From positions 1 through 11,149 of the IMG/VR virus record IMGVR_UViG_2923302340_000010: a DNA stretch of 11,149 bases; one strand, given 5' to 3'. The notes below the pieces were generated by a model. The model did no database searches and was not told the DNA's origin. It saw nothing but the letters and a program-made list of their open reading frames with translations. The stretch's first letter is position 1, and each line of letters begins with the position of its first letter. Below, piece after piece: positions 2,042 to 11,149 of this stretch. Source of the DNA: a virus (taxonomy: Duplodnaviria; Heunggongvirae; Uroviricota; Caudoviricetes). The translations under genes were made by a program, and so were the position numbers.

Positions 2042-2386
2042 TTAATTTTTGCCATCGTCATTTGTGACCGATGCACATGAGGGCATCCAGTCTTCTGAAT
2101 CCTCTGTCAGTATCACGTTTGAACGCAAGCCATGCTTCGTTTTCCGTTTCATATACTCCCTGCCGTATTCCGCCATTGCCCCTGGCATATCCTTACCGAA
2201 GCGTGTCAGTGTTACGGGCTTACCGAATCCGTGTGCCCTCATATACGCCAGATAGGCGTGATAGAGATACCTGCGCGGGCTGAACGGAATAATTTCAGCA
2301 TTACCCACTAACAGGCCATCGCACATTACCGACGACATGAGATAGCCGCAGAAGTCCACCAGCGAATCGCCCTCGCGTTTTATCAC
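2042..2386 (-). CDS. C-terminal fragment of the P4 alpha-like primase/helicase (putative origin-binding domain), split from the upstream ORF by an in-frame TAG
   Basis: Same reading frame as 2438..3841. The 17 codons between the TAG at 2438..2440 and the GTG at 2386 are open (read-through gives ...LLTRFSD*DEAKRLLYEQQKSEEALVIKREGDS...). The pattern YLYHAYLAYMRAHGFGKPVTLTRFGKDM resembles the conserved C-terminal region of P4-family primases. Weak RBS before the GTG. Confidence 0.6.
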   Translation of the reverse strand: MIKREGDSLVDFCGYLMSSVMCDGLLVGNAEIIPFSPRRYLYHAYLAYMRAHGFGKPVTLTRFGKDMPGAMAEYGREYMKRKTKHGLRSNVILTEDSEDWMPSCASVTNDDGKN

Positions 2387-2437
2387 CAGGGCTTCTTCTG
2401 ATTTCTGCTGCTCATATAGCAGGCGTTTAGCTTCGTC

Positions 2438-3841
2438 CTAGTCAGAAAAGCGTGTAAGCAGGTGGCGAATCACTACCGCCAGCTCTCCTTCTATTTTTTC
2501 AGCCAGCATAGGGTCACGTTCGTTCTCCGGTACAACTTCCGAAAAATTGAATATTACCCGACGACGTGATATCCCACCGCTGCGGTCACTGAATGACATG
2601 GCGTTATTGTTCACCGCCAGCACGACCGCCTGAATGCGTGTTGAGTAGGGGGCTTTATGTTTCGGGTCGATTGCCACCTTATCACCGCCTGTAATGGCCT
2701 TAATCCCTGCACCATCACCAGCGTAACGGGTCATATCCGGCATGATAATCAGCGAAAAGCCAACCACTAACGCACGTTCCCTGGCATCTTCCAGCGCCTT
2801 CATGCTTGCCGATACCGTGTTGGCCTTACCCGCCAGCATAGTGCAAATCTCCGCCATTACGCTTTTACCGCTTCCACCCGGCCCCGTTACCTCAAGAAAT
2901 AACTGCCAGTCGTACCGATTCGCCAGCACCATGAATAACGCCGCCAGTACGCGATCTGCCTTGCGGTCATTCTCAGCCACCGAACGGCGCAACCACTTCC
3001 AGAAATTCGGCGCATGTGTTGCCAGCGTTTCCCCCTCTGCTGGTGGGCTGAAAGGTAATTCACTGGCAATTAACAACCAGTCGTTTTTGTTATGCTCCCG
3101 AAAATTACCAGTTCTGGTATCAAATACCCCGTTACTGAATCCAATCAGGTTACGGGCTGTATTCCCCATTACGGGCAAACTTAACTTCATGGTATCGACC
3201 GCCGATTTGATGGCGTTCTGCGAATAGCTGATTTCCGCATCAATAAAAATCTGCGCCATAGTCCGCTGTAACTCTTTATCCTGTACCGGCTCCCATACAA
3301 CACCGTTGTAGTGGTGAACGGTGTCAGAATCCGCATTGATTGCCAGTTCACCGCCATAATGTGCCAGGAGAACTTCGCCGCGCTGGCTGGCTCCCATCTG
3401 ATTTAGTGCTGGCCTGGGTAGGTCAATATTTTTTGTGGCTAATTTCATCGCTGAAACTTCCCCACTCTCTGCCTGTTCGCGGATCCGTTGCAGGTAGTCG
3501 CGCCAGTTTTCCGGCTCCCGGTCGGTGATACCTTTGTATAATTTCGCGTCCTGTACGCCAGCCAGTGCCAGTTTTTCAGCGATAGCATTGATCTGGATTG
3601 GTTCGATCTCCCCCGCGAGATAGACACGCGCAAAGCGGCGTTCATCGTCGACAATGCGGATATTCGCCAGGTCTGCCAGTTGCTTTGGCCCCAGGTAAAC
3701 AGGTGGTACGTTATCGCCGTGTTTTCGTCCTTCGCTTTCAATCCAGTGTTGAGCATGGGCGTAAGCATCCGTCCCGGCAAAAATGATTACCTCAGTGAAT
3801 TTATCCTTCGGCTGATATTTCAAACTCGGTGCGTTTTTCAC
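2438..3841 (-). CDS. P4 alpha-like primase/helicase (D5/P4-family P-loop NTPase), truncated by an in-frame TAG at 2438..2440
   Basis: 467-aa ORF with Walker A motif GPGGSGKS. GTG start at 3841 is preceded by GGGAGGT and overlaps the stop of the upstream gene (GTGA). Together with 2042..2386 it would make a roughly 600-aa protein. Confidence 0.85.
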   Translation of the reverse strand: MKNAPSLKYQPKDKFTEVIIFAGTDAYAHAQHWIESEGRKHGDNVPPVYLGPKQLADLANIRIVDDERRFARVYLAGEIEPIQINAIAEKLALAGVQDAKLYKGITDREPENWRDYLQRIREQAESGEVSAMKLATKNIDLPRPALNQMGASQRGEVLLAHYGGELAINADSDTVHHYNGVVWEPVQDKELQRTMAQIFIDAEISYSQNAIKSAVDTMKLSLPVMGNTARNLIGFSNGVFDTRTGNFREHNKNDWLLIASELPFSPPAEGETLATHAPNFWKWLRRSVAENDRKADRVLAALFMVLANRYDWQLFLEVTGPGGSGKSVMAEICTMLAGKANTVSASMKALEDARERALVVGFSLIIMPDMTRYAGDGAGIKAITGGDKVAIDPKHKAPYSTRIQAVVLAVNNNAMSFSDRSGGISRRRVIFNFSEVVPENERDPMLAEKIEGELAVVIRHLLTRFSD

Positions 3842-4691: not shown

Positions 4692-4908
4692 GGTGCACCT
4701 CCTGCACATCAGCCATGATAATTTTTCCGGCCTTATCCAGTGCCTGATCGGCTTTTAGCTGCACAAATGCTAAATAATGGGAGATGCATTCTGATTCTCT
4801 GGCTGCGTGTTTATGCGCCACACCAGCGATAGCAGAAATCTCAATAAGTGAATCCATCAGCGTTTTGATAGCGTCTACCGCTGCATCAGGCCATGTTGCA
4901 TTACACAT
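4684..4908 (-). CDS. Hypothetical protein (74 aa)
   Basis: ATG at 4908 preceded by CAGGAGGTGG; overlaps the stop of the upstream gene (ATGTGTAA). Confidence 0.5.
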   Translation of the reverse strand: MCNATWPDAAVDAIKTLMDSLIEISAIAGVAHKHAARESECISHYLAFVQLKADQALDKAGKIIMADVQEVHHA

Positions 4909-5266
4909 GTTCCACCTCCTGGCGAATGCGGGCAGCGAATACCATCACGCAGCCATCAGGAGATTGCTGGCGTGCTTCCTGTTCGCTGGTGGCCTCGATG
5001 TGAATTACACGCGGTTGTGCTGTGCTCAGGGCGATAAAACGCCATATAAAATTGTTTTCGCATTTCTGAATAAACAGCGTGTTTTCTTCGCGCCCTTTCC
5101 ATGTTGCCGAGATATAGCCCATATCATTGAGCATCTTGCAGGCATCCACCAGCGTATCAGCGGCTACGTGTACAGTGTTTTTACCGTCAGCCATGCAATC
5201 ACGGTGCACCGCCAGGAAGGTGTATATAAATTTAGGGTGAGTTTGGGTATGCTGTATTCCAGCCAT
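4901..5266 (-). CDS. Hypothetical protein (121 aa), first gene of the operon leading into the primase
   Basis: Internal ATG at 5266..5264 of the 384-aa track ORF, preceded by GAGGT at about 8 nt. Upstream of it the frame yields low-complexity Ser/Cys-rich sequence and overlaps the plus-strand regulator gene, so the long ORF is an artefact. Confidence 0.55.
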   Translation of the reverse strand: MAGIQHTQTHPKFIYTFLAVHRDCMADGKNTVHVAADTLVDACKMLNDMGYISATWKGREENTLFIQKCENNFIWRFIALSTAQPRVIHIEATSEQEARQQSPDGCVMVFAARIRQEVEHV

Positions 5267-5353
5267 AATCGTTACCTCATTTAACGGTTTGGTTAGAAGC
5301 CCGGTTAGTGTTCGCGCACTGCCGGGTTTCGTCGTTTTTATGAATCGCTCATT

Positions 5354-5455
5354 GTGAGATACATAGCGACCTCCATGTGAGATACACATTATATTGTGGT
5401 GATATACATTGCAAGTGTTTTTATATCTCACTTTTGTGTATAGTGATATACACAT
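5354..5455. promoter_or_regulatory. Phased operator-like repeat array GTGA(G/T)ATACA(CA)T in the divergent intergenic region
   Basis: Direct copies at 5354..5364, 5377..5389, 5399..5409 and 5443..5455, plus an inverted copy ATATCTCAC at 5423..5431, spaced about 22-23 bp apart (two helical turns). A possible extended -10 (TGTGTATAGT, about 5435..5444) faces the plus-strand gene. Confidence 0.5.
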
Positions 5456-5474
5456 AACAAATTGGTGATTAACT

Positions 5475-5777
5475 ATGTCTGTATACAAAAATGCAAAATC
5501 GCAAATGACAACGATCAGGGTTCCCCACGATGTTATGGAGGGCATGGAATCCGTAAAACTGGACGGCGAAAGCAACGCCGGATTCATAGTAACCGCCATG
5601 CGCGGTGAGATCGCTCGCCGCCAGGCAGAAGGAAGAGGAGAAAATCCCCTGGTTTCTTCGCTCGATGCACTGGCGCAGGTGGAAAAAATCGGTGTCAAAG
5701 CTGCCGAGGAGATCGGGCAACTCGTCACCGTCGCGCGTGAAGAACTCCAGCGCCGCAAGGCCAAAGAACAGGAGTAG
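5475..5777 (+). CDS. Small DNA-binding regulator, putative ribbon-helix-helix (CopG/Arc-like) repressor (100 aa)
   Basis: ATG at 5475 with GGTGA 6 nt upstream; TAG at 5775..5777. TTIRVPHDV (beta-strand), then a helix, a NAG turn and a second helix (FIVTAMRGEIARR) fit the RHH pattern; charged helical C-terminus. It is the only convincing plus-strand gene in the element and is divergent from the small-gene operon. Confidence 0.5.
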   Translation: MSVYKNAKSQMTTIRVPHDVMEGMESVKLDGESNAGFIVTAMRGEIARRQAEGRGENPLVSSLDALAQVEKIGVKAAEEIGQLVTVAREELQRRKAKEQE

Positions 5778-6047
5778 TTGATCAGCACCGGGCGACCAGA
5801 AAAAATCGCATCAGTCGCACCACCAGCAAAATTTTTTGCTTTCCGGACAGCGTGACCAACGACATTTTGCAGCAAAATATTCTGCATTTCTGGCGTGCTG
5901 TAGTAACGGTGATCAGCGCCTTCACTCTGTGCGACCACAACGCTATAATCTGCCTCGTAGACAGTAAGCAATATGGCGCAGTAGGCTATTCGTTCACAAA
6001 GGCGCTCCGGCAACGGGGCGCTTTCTCTTTTTGTAACGGTCAGAGCG

Positions 6048-6896
6048 TTACACATGGCTGTTTTCCTCCATGCGGCGGGCTAACCAACGCTGCGAAAGAC
6101 GAATTAATTCAGCTTTCCGCTGGTGGTAGTCCTGGCCTAACTCAATCAGCGTGATATTGCTCTGCTCAAGGTAAGAAAGGTGCTCAAGCTGCAACGTGCT
6201 CATGTGGTCGCGTGGTTCGCCTGTGATGCCGTTCGCCAGTGCCCACTGTTTTGCAGTCATGCCACCCAGCACGATACGCGCCAGCATATTGGCTTCCGTG
6301 GTGTAGTGGTGCTGGAACGTGCTTTTACCCAGTTCAGCCCGGTACGCCTCCAGCGCGGCGCACATCGGCTTAAAGTAGCTGGCAACGGTGATACGGGCTT
6401 TCAGTTCCCGGCGTAACGCTGCGGAACGCACTGGCGCCACCTTGTGTAGATCCTCCTCGCATTTGATGAAATACTGGCGAACGGCGCGGCCTTGTTCGGT
6501 GCGTTCGACCATCGCCAGTTCTTTCGCCATGTTCGTGGAGATCAAATAGTCTTCACTGCGGCGATCACCGCCGCGCTTTGTTGTCCAATCAGAATCAAAC
6601 TGTTCAATATTTACACTTTGGTTCCCCCGTTTCGGGGAATCAAAGTACAAATTTTCTACAACTTCAAAATCCACGCCATTTTTAAATCCGTACTCATCAA
6701 TACGTCCTTTAATCCAGGTAGTGAAATCACGGCCTACCCCGAGCGCCTTATACAACGCTCTGGCGCTAACAATATTGGTTTCACGCCCGCCAATAACGCC
6801 GGAAATAACCGGGATAATTTCGCCAAAATTTTGCAGATTCTGGTTTTCAGGCCGAACGAAGCCCTGCCCCTGTACGGGCGTTTTTGGAAATTTCAT
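6048..6896 (-). CDS. Phage antirepressor-like protein with N-terminal AntA/Bro-N-type domain (282 aa)
   Basis: ATG at 6896 preceded by AGGAG; TAA at 6048..6050. ALYKALGVGRDFTTWIKGRIDEYGF and NMAKELAMVERTEQGRAVRQYFIKCEE match the conserved blocks of phage Ant/Bro-N antirepressor N-domains as I recall them. Confidence 0.7.
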   Translation of the reverse strand: MKFPKTPVQGQGFVRPENQNLQNFGEIIPVISGVIGGRETNIVSARALYKALGVGRDFTTWIKGRIDEYGFKNGVDFEVVENLYFDSPKRGNQSVNIEQFDSDWTTKRGGDRRSEDYLISTNMAKELAMVERTEQGRAVRQYFIKCEEDLHKVAPVRSAALRRELKARITVASYFKPMCAALEAYRAELGKSTFQHHYTTEANMLARIVLGGMTAKQWALANGITGEPRDHMSTLQLEHLSYLEQSNITLIELGQDYHQRKAELIRLSQRWLARRMEENSHV

Positions 6897-6973: not shown

Positions 6974-7171
6974 TCAGGTAGCTGTTCCGCGTGATTCTGC
7001 AATACGCTGATTAATCCACTCGTCAATTTCACTCTCAACGAAAGCAATCGCTCGCGAGCCAATTTTAACTGATGCAGGAAATTTACCTTGCCCCATAAGG
7101 CGATAAATCCATGCCTTGCTATATCCAGTTCTACGCTGAACTTCTGTTAAACGAATAAGCGTATTTGACAT
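6974..7171 (-). CDS. alpA: AlpA-family phage regulatory protein (MerR-like HTH; excisionase/transcriptional activator type, 65 aa)
   Basis: LTEVQRRTGYSKAWIYRLMGQGKFP...ESEIDEWINQR matches the AlpA/Vis family pattern (HTH followed by EIDEW). ATG at 7171 preceded by GAGGT; TGA at 6974..6976. Confidence 0.85.
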   Translation of the reverse strand: MSNTLIRLTEVQRRTGYSKAWIYRLMGQGKFPASVKIGSRAIAFVESEIDEWINQRIAESRGTAT

Positions 7172-7240
7172 ATATTTACCTCATAACGTCTACTCAATTT
7201 GACGAGGTAATCATGGCACAGAAATAACGAATATTTTCAT

Positions 7241-7385
7241 ACCCTCAGGCCTAATGGTTACCGGAAGGAAATTAACCCTAAGGGTGATGGTAATCGGGAG
7301 GAAATCTACCCTAAGGGTGATGGTAAAATTGACGGGGAAGATAAAAAAATACCCTCAGGGTAACAGTAAATCACCCTCAGGGTAT
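7241..7385. promoter_or_regulatory. Array of palindromic ACCCT(A/C)AGGGT sites upstream of alpA, including a 31-bp tandem duplication
   Basis: Sites at 7275..7285, 7308..7318, 7351..7361 and 7373..7383, with a half-site at 7241..7249. Nearly identical 31-bp units at 7263..7293 and 7296..7326 (GGA(A/G)GGAAAT(T/C)(A/T)ACCCTAAGGGTGATGGTAA). TACCCTcAGGGTA at 7350..7362 is a perfect 13-bp palindrome. Confidence 0.5.
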
Positions 7386-7398
7386 GCGGTATGGTGCG

Positions 7399-8196
7399 TT
7401 AATCCGGCTTTGCGTTCTTTTGGCTGTTGTCTCGGTTAATAGGGCAGGCAGTCCTCTCTATGAGCGTTGCAAGAGCATTACTTGCCCCCCACTGCTTAAG
7501 CTCCCTGGTTATCGCTTCTTGATTTCCCCTGGTGGCAAAATCATTTTCTGGATCGTAATTGGCCCACTCTCTGTTTCTAATCTCAATAGCCTTAGCTAAT
7601 GGGTCTTTATCCCAGTATTTATATAAGTGTATCGGGCGCTCTTGCTCTAACTGCTCTATCCTTGCCCTTAACTCTGCGTTTTCTTTTTCCAGCATTGCGA
7701 TTTGGGATAATAAATCATCCTCTGTACGCAACTCTTTCTTTTCAATATCGCGTCCTTGTGCCTCGTCATTTTCAGAAGAGTTAGCGCCTTCCAGCTTCGT
7801 TAACGCGTCAAGGACATCGGGAAAAATTGCGAAAATTTCACCCCTTATAAATCCAATGTTCTCAAATTCGGGATCTTCCCAATAACCGGACACCAGAAAA
7901 CCATTTTCATCCCTCTCACCAGGTAAACAACCACGTTTCCGAACCGCATTCAGATTTCTATAAAGAACATCATAATCAAATTCATCCCGATACGGGTTAC
8001 AAAAAGATTCCAACAGCTTAAATTCATTTACTGTGTACAGGCGGATATGTTCTCCGTTTATTCTCCTGAGTATCCAAGTTATGACATCTGAAACATCATA
8101 ATCATCACCAGCGACCTTAAGCACGACCTCAAGAAATTCACGTAAAGAAATAAAATCTTTTTTGTATTCGTTTAATTCGGCATGAATATCAATCAT
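7399..8196 (-). CDS. Hypothetical acidic protein (about 265 aa) with central coiled-coil; AT-rich orphan gene between int and alpA
   Basis: ATG at 8196 preceded by GAGGTG (the track start at 8202 is GTG); TAA at 7399..7401. Markedly lower GC than its neighbours. Coiled-coil-like segment LLSQIAMLEKENAELRARIEQLEQE. No catalytic motif recognised. Confidence 0.7.
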   Translation of the reverse strand: MIDIHAELNEYKKDFISLREFLEVVLKVAGDDYDVSDVITWILRRINGEHIRLYTVNEFKLLESFCNPYRDEFDYDVLYRNLNAVRKRGCLPGERDENGFLVSGYWEDPEFENIGFIRGEIFAIFPDVLDALTKLEGANSSENDEAQGRDIEKKELRTEDDLLSQIAMLEKENAELRARIEQLEQERPIHLYKYWDKDPLAKAIEIRNREWANYDPENDFATRGNQEAITRELKQWGASNALATLIERTACPINRDNSQKNAKPD

Positions 8197-8324
8197 ACGC
8201 ACACCTCAGCGTCCTCTACTGTAGTGGCTGTACCAGTCCGTCGAGGTGTACGGATTTTCGGGAGCGACCCTAGACACAGCCTTTTCTTTCGTCGCTCAAA
8301 GTCTACTACTGTATACTCAACCAG

Positions 8325-9539
8325 TCACCCGCATTTTCCGAACTCACCATGCACCACATTTCCGCCATGCTCGAGCGAATCCATATAGTCGGCATACCAC
8401 TGGAGCATCTCCCGGCGACCATCCAGATATTGCGCATGGTTGTATGTGCCACGAATTGAGTTTTTATCGACGTGTGCAAGCTGTGTCTCTATCCACGCGG
8501 TGTTATAGCCCTGCTCATGCAAAATGGTGCTCATGGTGTGCCGGAATCCATGACCAGTAACCTTTCCGTTATAGCCGATGCGTTTAAATACTTGGTTTAT
8601 GCTAGCCTCGCTCATTGTTTTCCTTGGATCATTACGGCCGGGAAACATAAGCGGATAATTGCCAGTTAATTCTTTAATCTGCCCAATAAGCGAAAGAGCC
8701 TGCTTAGACAAAGGCACCACATGAGGGCGACGCATTTTCATCCGTGAAGCAGGTATCTCCCAGATAGCCTTGTTGAGATCGATTTCATCCCATAATGCAC
8801 CGCGCAGTTCGCCAGTCCGCAAACCGGTGATAATCAGTAGACGAGCCGCCATAACAACCAATGCACTTCCTGAGTAACTGGACAATGCCTTGAAAAAATC
8901 AGGTAATTCTTTGGCTGTGAGGAAAGGATAATGATTAGATTCATGACCTTGCATCGCGCTGGTGAGATCCGGTGCAGGGTTATACTCAGCACGTCCAGTG
9001 ACAATTGCATAGCGGAAAACCTCCCCGCATCGCTGCCTCACTTTTTTGGCTTTTTCGGTAGCACCGCGCCCCTCGATGCGCCGCAGCACATTCAGCAGTT
9101 CAAGTGGTTTGATTTCGGCGATTGGTTTTTTGCCAATGTAAGGGAACACATCTTTGTTGAAGGCTTCGAGGATGTCTGAAGCATAACCAGCAGACCATTT
9201 TTTTAATTTGCTGCTGTGCCACTCAAGGGCAATATCTTTGAAGGTGTTGTTTAACTGCGTTTCCCGGGCAATCTTTTCCTCTCGTTTCGCTTCCATCGGA
9301 TCGATACCCCCAGCGATACCCCTTTTAGCTTCTTCACGTTTTGCACGAGCATCAGCCAAGGTAACTTCAGGATACACACCTAGTGCTAACAGCTTCTCTT
9401 TACCAGCTACACGATACTTGAAGCGCCAATATTTTCCTCCACTAGGTTTTACCAAGAGATACAGACCGCCACCATCAGCCAGCTTGTAAGCCTTCTCTTT
9501 TGGCTTGGCAGTGTCTATTTGACGGGCATTGAGTTTCAC
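8325..9539 (-). CDS. int: P4-type tyrosine site-specific integrase (404 aa)
   Basis: N-terminal arm-binding-type region (LNARQIDTAKPKEK...GGLYLLVKPSGGKYWRFKYR), catalytic R in GLRTGELRG, H-x-x-R in HGFRHT, and a C-terminal Tyr in RGTYNH. GTG start at 9539 preceded by GGAGGT. Lies directly beside the tRNA 3' end. Confidence 0.95.
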   Translation of the reverse strand: MKLNARQIDTAKPKEKAYKLADGGGLYLLVKPSGGKYWRFKYRVAGKEKLLALGVYPEVTLADARAKREEAKRGIAGGIDPMEAKREEKIARETQLNNTFKDIALEWHSSKLKKWSAGYASDILEAFNKDVFPYIGKKPIAEIKPLELLNVLRRIEGRGATEKAKKVRQRCGEVFRYAIVTGRAEYNPAPDLTSAMQGHESNHYPFLTAKELPDFFKALSSYSGSALVVMAARLLIITGLRTGELRGALWDEIDLNKAIWEIPASRMKMRRPHVVPLSKQALSLIGQIKELTGNYPLMFPGRNDPRKTMSEASINQVFKRIGYNGKVTGHGFRHTMSTILHEQGYNTAWIETQLAHVDKNSIRGTYNHAQYLDGRREMLQWYADYMDSLEHGGNVVHGEFGKCG

Positions 9540-9614: not shown

Positions 9615-9705
9615 TTAAGTAGACGTCAAAAGACTAAAAGGGGCATTAATATACTGATTATAAGAGGTTTTTAAATACTTTAGTAGACTTGGGGAGACGT
9701 TAGAA

Positions 9706-9781
9706 TGGTGCCGATAATAGGAGTCGAACCTACGACCTTCGCATTACGAATGCGCTGCTCTACCAACTGAGCTATATCGGC
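9706..9781 (-). tRNA. thrW: tRNA-Thr (anticodon CGU)
   Basis: The reverse complement reads GCCGATATAGCTCAGTTGGTAGAGCAGCGCATTCGTAATGCGAAGGTCGTAGGTTCGACTCCTATTATCGGCACCA: 76 nt, cloverleaf-compatible, anticodon loop TTCGTAA, encoded CCA. Position downstream of proA matches the E. coli proA-thrW arrangement. Confidence 0.95.
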
Positions 9782-9895: not shown

Positions 9896-11149
9896 TTACG
9901 CACGAATGGTGTAATCACCAATGCCGATCCACTTGTAAGTGGTCAGCGCTTCCAGCCCCATTGGGCCACGCGCGTGGAGTTTTTGTGTGCTTACCGCCAC
10001 TTCCGCGCCCAGTCCAAACTGGCCGCCGTCGGTAAAACGCGTAGAGGCGTTAACGTAAACAGAGGACGAATCCACTTCGTTAACAAAACGCTGGGCGTTG
10101 CGCATATCGCGGGTCAGGATCGCATCGGAGTGTTGTGTGCCGTGTTCACGAATATGGGCGATGGCATCGTCAAGATCGCTGACGATTTTAACGTTCAAAT
10201 CTAATGACAGAAACTCATCGTCATACTCTTCGGCTTTAACAGCCACCACCTTCGCGGGGCCTGCCTGCAACTGCGCCAGCGCAGCTACATCTGCGTGTAA
10301 TGTCACGCTGCTTTCCGCCATTTGCTTGCTTAATGCGGGCAGGAAGCTATCGGCGATGTTTTTATTTACCAGCAACGTTTCTACCGTATTACATGTGCTC
10401 GGACGCTGAGTTTTTGCGTTAACGATTACTTTCATGGCTTCAGCGATCTCTGCACTTTCATCAACGTAAATATGGCATACGCCTATACCGCCTGTGATCA
10501 CCGGGATTGTCGACTGTTCGCGGCACAGCTTATGCAGGCCAGCGCCACCACGCGGGATCAGCATGTCGATGTATTTATCCATACGCAGCATTTCACTTAC
10601 CAGCGCACGGTCAGGATTATCAATCGCCTGCACGGCACCCGCCGGTAAGCTGCAGGATTTCAGGGCGTCCTGAATCACCGCCACCGTTGCAGCGTTAGTG
10701 CGACAGGTTTCTTTGCCACCACGCAGGATCACTGCGTTACCGGTTTTCAGGCACAGGGAAGCAACATCAACCGTCACGTTCGGGCGCGCTTCATAAATCA
10801 CGCCAATCACCCCCAGCGGTACGCGACGACGCTCCAGACGCAGACCGCTGTCCAGTACGCCACCATCAATCACCTGCCCCACCGGATCGGCGAGGTTACA
10901 CACCTGACGCACATCATCGGCAATGCCTTTCAGCCGTGCGGGCGTCAGAGCCAGACGGTCAAGCATCGCTTCGCTAAGGCCATTGGCACGCGCGTCAGCA
11001 ACATCCTGCGCGTTAGCGTTGAGGATGATTTTGCTTTGTGCTTCCAGTTCATCGGCGATTTTTTCCAGCACGCGATTTTTTTCGCGGCTGGAGAGTTGCG
11101 CTAATTTATACGAGGCTTGCTTCGCGGCAATGCCCATTTGTTCCAGCAT
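9896..11149 (-). CDS. proA: Gamma-glutamyl phosphate reductase (glutamate-5-semialdehyde dehydrogenase)
   Basis: Full 417-aa ORF: ATG at the window end ([19 protein letters not shown]...), TAA at 9896..9898; aldehyde-dehydrogenase-like throughout; lies beside the tRNA-Thr gene as in enterobacterial chromosomes. Confidence 0.97.

Follow-up and report, generated by a model that had tools for sequence, protein, structure and literature searches.

The window, an 11,149-nt stretch of the Escherichia coli chromosome read in reverse, contains a palindrome directly behind an integrase gene that we read, with a probability of about 0.7, as a working operator through which the host LexA repressor would control the downstream unit of a satellite of the phage-inducible chromosomal island (PICI) type. 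The island genes all lie on the minus strand, in the order int, a gene for a 265-aa protein, alpA, a gene for an AntA-domain protein (antA), a gene for a DUF4222 protein, a primase gene, a gene for a ProQ/FinO protein and perC. A tRNA-Thr (CGT; 9706-9781, minus) marks the integration site, and proA (9896-11149) lies beyond it, outside the island. The int gene (8325-9539, minus) encodes a P4-type tyrosine integrase with Arm-DNA-bind_3, Phage_int_M and Phage_integrase domains, and alpA (6974-7171, minus) encodes an AlpA-family HTH regulator (PF05930) and has its own upstream region of 228 nt. Judged by this layout, in which tRNA-Thr, int, alpA, a D5_N/DUF5906 primase and PerC follow one another in the same orientation, the element is of the Gram-negative PICI type and is inserted at tRNA-Thr. 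The same gene set and order (int, alpA, DUF4222, primase, PerC) is found in EcCICFT073-type PICIs (PMC6092414), and the window island resembles the CFT073 island that adjoins roxA. The primase/helicase region (2042-3841, minus) is apparently divided into two ORFs, of 467 aa (D5_N, DUF5906) and 114 aa (Pox_D5), whereas the primase of the CFT073 island is a single protein of 584 aa; given this split, the window island may be replication-defective. Neither of the P4-like markers that we looked for, a psu-delta-sid capsid-size module and an immunity RNA of the C4/isrK type, occurs within the window, which ends inside the island; isrK and C4 are present downstream of alpA in several related loci.

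A sequence-only reading of the window had pointed to a LexA-box-like sequence at 8306-8325, and this sequence, ctaCTGTatactcaaCCAGt, was found letter for letter. The candidate LexA (SOS) box that we scored is the 20-mer at 8307-8326 (TACTGTATACTCAACCAGTC; GACTGGTTGAGTATACAGTA on the int strand), and its core 16-mer CTGTATACTCAACCAG at 8309-8324 has the form CTGT-N8-CCAG. The core is palindromic, with CTG-N10-CAG around an AT-rich centre, which is the geometry of an E. coli-type LexA box. As had been claimed, the box follows the int stop codon immediately: the TGA occupies 8325-8327, the 20-mer begins on the int strand at its second base, and the CTG of the palindrome begins at the first base past it. 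The bare CTGT-N9-CAG geometry occurs once in the window against 0.96 occurrences expected from shuffles, so that geometry alone carries no weight. Scores were obtained with a LexA heterology-index (HI) matrix of the Lewis type, the penalties of which could be recovered by regression because the HI is additive; the regression used 140 pairs of sequence and HI from Table S1 of PMC12527982, a supplement that gives the HI of CTG-N10-CAG sites in E. coli K-12, and the rounded matrix with which we scored deviates from the published values by no more than 0.003. The 20-mer TACTGTATACTCAACCAGTC has an HI of 8.90, within the span covered by LexA-binding sites of E. coli K-12. In the K-12 table (PMC12527982, PSOSP) only 23 rows have an HI of 8.9 or lower, and rows up to 13.6 all fall in the authors' binding cluster. 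At the base composition of the window, the expected number of sites with an HI of 8.9 or lower is 0.004 in a stretch the size of the window and 1.6 in a 4.6-Mb genome, and the second-best CTG-N10-CAG site in the window has an HI of 18.8. Binding by LexA is said, after work by Lewis and co-workers in 1994, to extend up to an HI of about 12.6. The matrix score that had been proposed as a check on the box is thus in the binding range and not a poor one, and the CCAG half-site, which had been defended as a deviation that genuine SOS boxes also show, does occur in many rows of the table (PMC12527982). Chromosomal K-12 SOS boxes with an HI of about 8-9.5 (PMC12527982 Table S1) share with the window box the palindrome, the AT-rich centre, CCAG/CTGG half-site variants and the same HI band (8.3-9.5). 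In contrast to these, the predicted box of the window belongs to a mobile island, lies against a stop codon and would serve an uncharacterised non-repair gene. The K-12 boxes with an HI of about 8-9.5 are, we assume, lexA-2, uvrD, ruvAB and cho.

Downstream of the box, the features of a short transcription unit follow one another on the minus strand. Two promoter-like hexamers are proposed from the sequence, a candidate -35 GTGACT (8323-8328; 4 of 6 consensus positions), which contains the int TGA, and, 17 nt downstream, a candidate -10 TAGACT (8300-8305), which overlaps a GTAGAC repeat (8301-8306). If TAGACT serves as the -10, the transcript would begin near 8293, some twelve nucleotides ahead of the outer stem of an int-alpA RNA motif (Rfam RF02996; 8213-8280, minus), which matches the full length of the model with 45.5 bits against a gathering score of 35.8. 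We take RF02996 to be the int-alpA motif of Weinberg et al. 2017, which is of unknown function. By score and structure the window copy is a member of this family, and it lies between int and alpA on their strand. The motif is found at threshold in 17 related loci besides the window; across 17 copies, covariation supports both the outer stem and the inner hairpin, with 100% of the cells in the structure paired and 5 compensatory pairs, which none of 500 shuffles reaches. In the loci that bear this module, the RNA directly precedes an accessory ORF, not alpA, and its conserved 3′ AGAGG tail lies just ahead of that ORF. From this arrangement, the int-alpA RNA is the predicted 5′ leader of the 265-aa gene (7399-8196, minus; Shine-Dalgarno GAGG 8204-8207, ATG 8194-8196; an alternative GTG start at 8202 would give 267 aa). 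The distance of about 110 bp that had been given between box and gene was measured as 112 nt, from the end of the box to the ATG at 8196 in the 265-aa reading, and is accounted for by the leader RNA in between. A second, 'related' motif had been placed at 8213-8237. Such a motif exists, at 8215-8238, but we rejected it as a LexA box, since it is spaced CTG-N11-CAG and is part of RF02996, in which it makes up the 3′ strand of the outer stem together with the tail.

The 265-aa gene is followed by an intrinsic terminator (7342-7385, minus) that consists of a hairpin (7349-7385) built from two ACCCTGAGGGT palindromes and a U7 run (7342-7348); the hairpin folds with -25 kcal/mol (z -3.6), and none of 200 shuffles folds as well. 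This hairpin and U7 run suggest that the transcription unit of the 265-aa gene probably stops before alpA in the window island. We considered such a terminator as a general feature of these units and rejected it, as it is clear in the window and L009 only and perhaps present in L003; in relatives that lack it, the transcript may read through into alpA. The two palindromes that make the hairpin are the first of a series of ACCCT[G/T]AGGGT elements between 7241 and 7383 (minus), perfect at 7373-7383, 7351-7361, 7308-7318 and 7275-7285 and imperfect at 7241-7250, and the remaining ones may be operator sites for the control of alpA.

These features provide the basis for a model of how the unit would be regulated. 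In undamaged cells, a LexA dimer would occupy CTGG-TTGAGTAT-ACAG (int strand, 8324 down to 8309), covering the spacer between the weak -35 GTGACT and the -10-like TAGACT, and would block RNA polymerase as well as any read-through from int. A repressor box between the -35 and the -10 is in the classical repressing position. Upon DNA damage, RecA would be activated and LexA would cleave itself, and derepressed transcription would begin near 8293. The 5′ end of the transcript would fold as the int-alpA structure (8280 down to 8213), and the transcript would be translated to give the 265-aa protein and would terminate at 7342-7385, before alpA.

Conservation of the box was assessed in 80 loci with relatives of int (59-96% identity, one genome per species) and in five other E. 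coli islands. Of these, 27 loci, which represent at least 14 genera, have a LexA-type palindrome in the homologous position, in 23 distinct sequences; the genera concerned are Escherichia, Pluralibacter, Enterobacter, Pectobacterium, Symbiopectobacterium, Serratia, Buttiauxella, Providencia, Pantoea, Erwinia, Xenorhabdus, Raoultella, Klebsiella, Photorhabdus, Leclercia and Budvicia. A CTG-N10-CAG site with an HI of 3.3-12.6 lies near the end of int in 23 of the 80 loci, and in 18 of these 23 the first base of the 20-mer coincides with the second base of the int stop; no box with an HI of 8.9 or lower occurs elsewhere in the approximately 560 kb of the 80 loci. Four of the other E. coli islands, which have int genes 92-99% identical to that of the window and three unrelated downstream genes, carry a box identical to the window's, and the fifth, with an int gene 65% identical, has a different palindrome, CTGTATGTATAGACAG, at the same place. 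Counting intact and decayed versions (23 and 4), 22-23 of the 27 distinct homologous boxes pass the HI threshold, whereas 6.3 (maximum 12) would be expected if the family consensus were mutated at random by equal numbers of changes. Among 16 loci of fixed spacing, mean pairwise identity is 1.0 for the CTG and CAG, 0.85 for the 16-mer, 0.48 for the next 13 nt, 1.0 for GTAGACT and 0.72 for the last 15 nt of int. The orthologous sites are thus conserved with substitutions that remain compatible with LexA. Part of the conservation of the box is explained by its common right half, ATAGACAG, doubling as a -35. However, in the Raoultella locus L027 the box (AACTGTATATAAATACAGTT, HI 3.34), which is the same as a K-12 chromosomal box, is separated from the -35, so that the conservation is not merely that of a promoter. 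Together, the substitution pattern and the L027 box indicate, as far as sequence comparison can, that the site is under selection for LexA-like specificity, and they exclude both a chance match and simple inheritance.

The promoter is the part of the SOS-control reading that requires most caution. In most loci, a TAGACA inside the right half of the box (ATAGACAG) is followed by 17 variable nucleotides and then by the TAGACT of the GTAGACT that is invariant in the 16 relatives of fixed architecture; this long form, TAGACA-17-TAGACT, matches 9 of 12 consensus positions and was called by a promoter scan in L024. The window and its close E. coli relatives have a short form, in which 13 nt between the box and TAGACT are missing, and the ancestral -35 inside the box is therefore misplaced. 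What the window has in its stead, GTGACT-17-TAGACT with the box filling the spacer, matches 8 of 12 positions, below the scan's threshold of 9 of 12, and was not called. Weak by consensus, the window promoter is the weakest link in the predicted SOS control of this locus. It might be argued that the box is a relic here, still LexA-like and perhaps still bound, and that the 13-nt deletion destroyed the promoter; the downstream gene would then be transcribed by read-through from int or be silent, and LexA would have little effect or act as a roadblock only. The uncalled hexamers are in keeping with this, and the seemingly split primase gives a hint of decay. We nevertheless consider a relic unlikely. 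The short form is identical across the E. coli islands with their three unrelated downstream genes, and the box retains the repressing position between the hexamers. Furthermore, between the window and L003, at 92% identity of int, there are 6 differences in the last 30 nt of int but none in the next 34 nt, which comprise the box and the TAGACT region. A second, independent short form is present in Serratia fonticola (L085), where the box lies 4 nt from TAGACT and the RNA is intact; box and promoter are found there 200 nt past an integrase of another subfamily. Because the 34 nt are unchanged and a short form is also found independently in Serratia, we argue that the short form remains functional. 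Among complete E. coli genomes, about 3-6% have the short or the long form, among them O104:H4 and O111 pathogens.

The hexamer region also touches on a repeat, GTAGAC, that flanks int in inverted orientation. In the window, copies lie at 9683-9688 and 9619-9624 on the plus strand and at 8301-8306 on the minus strand, and an extra copy at 7188-7193 (minus) lies 17 nt ahead of the alpA start codon. In 23 related loci, two copies lie between the tRNA and the start of int (45 copies) and one or two just past the int stop (32 copies); the background density is 0.2-0.3 per kb. The repeats are probably binding sites for Int (arm-type) or AlpA, and their placement suggests a second input on the predicted LexA-controlled promoter; the TAGACT hexamer may be conserved for the binding of this second protein rather than as a -10. 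One could go further and suppose that the palindrome itself serves as operator for a different protein (Int or AlpA of the island, for example, or the repressor of a helper phage) and resembles a LexA box only incidentally, given that GTAGAC/TAGAC repeats, which are clearly those of another DNA-binding protein, extend over this region and into the right half of the common box. This is very unlikely in view of how the box varies. Among 23 variants, the G of TAGAC changes (G in 16, A in 5 and T in 2), whereas ACAG and the CTG of the left half are invariant. Moreover, the variants without TAGAC keep or improve the LexA score (3.34 in L027, 7.34 in L085 and 8.90 in the window), and random drift would ruin that score in about three-quarters of cases.

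A LexA operator at this place could also act on int and not on the downstream gene, either at an antisense promoter directed into the 3′ end of int or through termination of int. The box does abut the int stop codon in most loci, and a -10-like TATACT is present inside it on the plus strand. However, this antisense direction has no -35 partner, and the conserved hexamers look like a promoter in the int/alpA direction only. In addition, box and hexamers come after a terminator-like int hairpin in L019 and L026 (Providencia and Xenorhabdus loci), and in these loci as in L085 the box, displaced from int, remains beside the RNA. These layouts suggest that the box travels with the promoter and the RNA, not with int, and we hold an action on int to be highly improbable. 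Chance resemblance, which the expectation of about one CTGT-N9-CAG per window might seem to allow, is effectively refuted by the full-matrix expectation of 0.004 per window and by positional conservation in at least 14 genera. The central claim of the sequence-only reading, a predicted LexA box with a tolerated CCAG half-site that would place the 265-aa gene under SOS control, is therefore backed by matrix score, promoter-like position and conservation.

The same reading had called the 265-aa gene an orphan, which does not hold: it is a member of an uncharacterised family that shares a conserved C-terminal domain and fills the same slot in other islands. The N-terminal half of the protein is variable; it is followed by a coiled coil and by the C-terminal domain, which is conserved over about 70 aa and ends in ...ACPI(K/N)R. 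Its homologues are confined to Enterobacteriaceae and all unnamed. In Pfam the protein matched nothing but a coiled coil, below threshold; PADLOC gave no match, and PHROG gave just two marginal ones (E ~0.002), to families of unknown function. A Foldseek search of the PDB with its AlphaFold model (pLDDT 75) returned no match at E <= 0.001. At least 10 unrelated protein clusters, mostly single genes encoding 200-320 aa, are found in the slot of the module-bearing loci, and only DUF6387 was recognised among the other cargo families, along with a transposase in one locus. The cargo genes are also modular. In the window, L002, L003, L009, L011, L027, L028 and L042, unrelated N-terminal halves are connected via a coiled coil to a conserved domain of about 70 aa at the C-terminus (…RNREWANYDP…ACPIKR), and a second cargo cluster retains a distant version of this domain. 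Roles of the cargo in defence or in manipulation of a helper phage are guesses from analogy.

The association of box and leader extends well beyond the window. In 17 of the 18 int-alpA RNAs at the Rfam threshold, a LexA-type box lies 30-65 nt upstream of the RNA; the exception is L008, in which the box is rearranged. The box thus offers a first regulatory handle on this RNA family, and together the elements define a conserved arrangement of promoter, leader and single-gene slot near int that accommodates at least 10 unrelated uncharacterised proteins. Based on these results we speculate, tentatively and at somewhat less than even odds, that the int-alpA RNA is the leader of an SOS-gated accessory-gene slot common to PICI- and P4-type satellites throughout the Enterobacterales, which would read the host LexA directly. 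If so, a fast-evolving single-gene cargo, possibly directed against phages or at the manipulation of helpers, would be deployed as resident prophages are induced; Int or AlpA may also tune the promoter via the GTAGAC repeats, and, where a cargo terminator is lacking, the transcript may feed alpA, and hence island induction, in relatives. The slot proteins are good candidates for functions, in satellite-helper interplay or against phages, that would be expressed only upon DNA damage. As for a sample ascertained independently by RNA sequence, a pattern scan gave no matches in IMG/VR and none in a phage collection, and the sole metagenome match was spurious. In the searchable texts we found neither the int-alpA RNA nor the interval between int and alpA of PICI/P4-like elements linked to LexA or SOS, and they yielded no experiments on strains with the island; the conserved coupling of a LexA box, the int-alpA RNA and a variable cargo slot in Gram-negative satellites appears unreported.

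LexA boxes in mobile elements are themselves already known, so that the site extends the SOS regulon and introduces no new principle. Genes of mobile elements repressed by LexA include tum of coliphage 186, the Gifsy antirepressors, the colicin operons and the integron intI. In all of these the host LexA is likewise borrowed to time one gene to DNA damage; they differ from the window unit in that there is no sequence relationship and in that the 265-aa product lacks a recognisable antirepressor, toxin or recombinase domain. Among satellites, operon I of the S. aureus pathogenicity islands (SaPIs) is given as LexA-controlled (Ubeda et al. 2007, cited in PMC6092414). A SaPI likewise uses the host SOS repressor for a unit of its own, apart from its helper-dependent switch; the SaPI unit, in contrast to the leader RNA and variable accessory gene near int in the window, is a packaging operon and has a Gram-positive LexA motif.

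The one E. coli PICI that has been studied experimentally is EcCICFT073, the alpA of which was reported to respond to a helper phage and to be independent of SOS (PMC6092414). The CFT073 PICI that we retrieved is probably this element. Its int-alpA interval contains neither the box nor the int-alpA RNA, and alpA follows int directly; the SOS independence of alpA in that island therefore has no bearing on the present module. Some Gram-negative PICIs would accordingly differ from it in having a predicted direct SOS input, the sole element studied experimentally reportedly being without one at alpA. CP4-57 of K-12 (intA-yfjH-alpA) was considered as a counterpart of the window island and set aside, since its layout is different and the box is absent.

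Several minor observations were made alongside these analyses. A 384-aa ORF at 4901-6055 (minus) has an odd composition and overlaps several shorter frames; its counterpart in L003 is annotated 'Icd-like', and a real gene looks likely only for the C-terminal part. The SymR antitoxin RNA matches 5261-5333 (plus) below threshold, with 35.7 bits where the gathering score is 61, and the match lies antisense to the beginning of a reading frame of about 120 aa. The symE/symR pair of K-12 is SOS-regulated; the match in the window may be a product of chance. In the Yersinia loci L018, L057 and L064, which are P4-like elements without an int-proximal box, a conserved LexA-type site, TACTGTTCAATTAACCAGTG (HI 10.59), lies approximately 630-800 nt past the int stop, a few hundred nucleotides from C4/isrK immunity RNAs. 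The CFT073 PICI has a strong LexA box of its own, AACTGGATGAACATCCAGTT (HI 6.81; L087:25410-25429, NC_004431.1 ~1385409), between perC and the capsid/head-decoration genes; lying upstream of capsid genes, it is a closer positional analogue of the LexA-controlled packaging operon I of SaPIs than is the box of the window.
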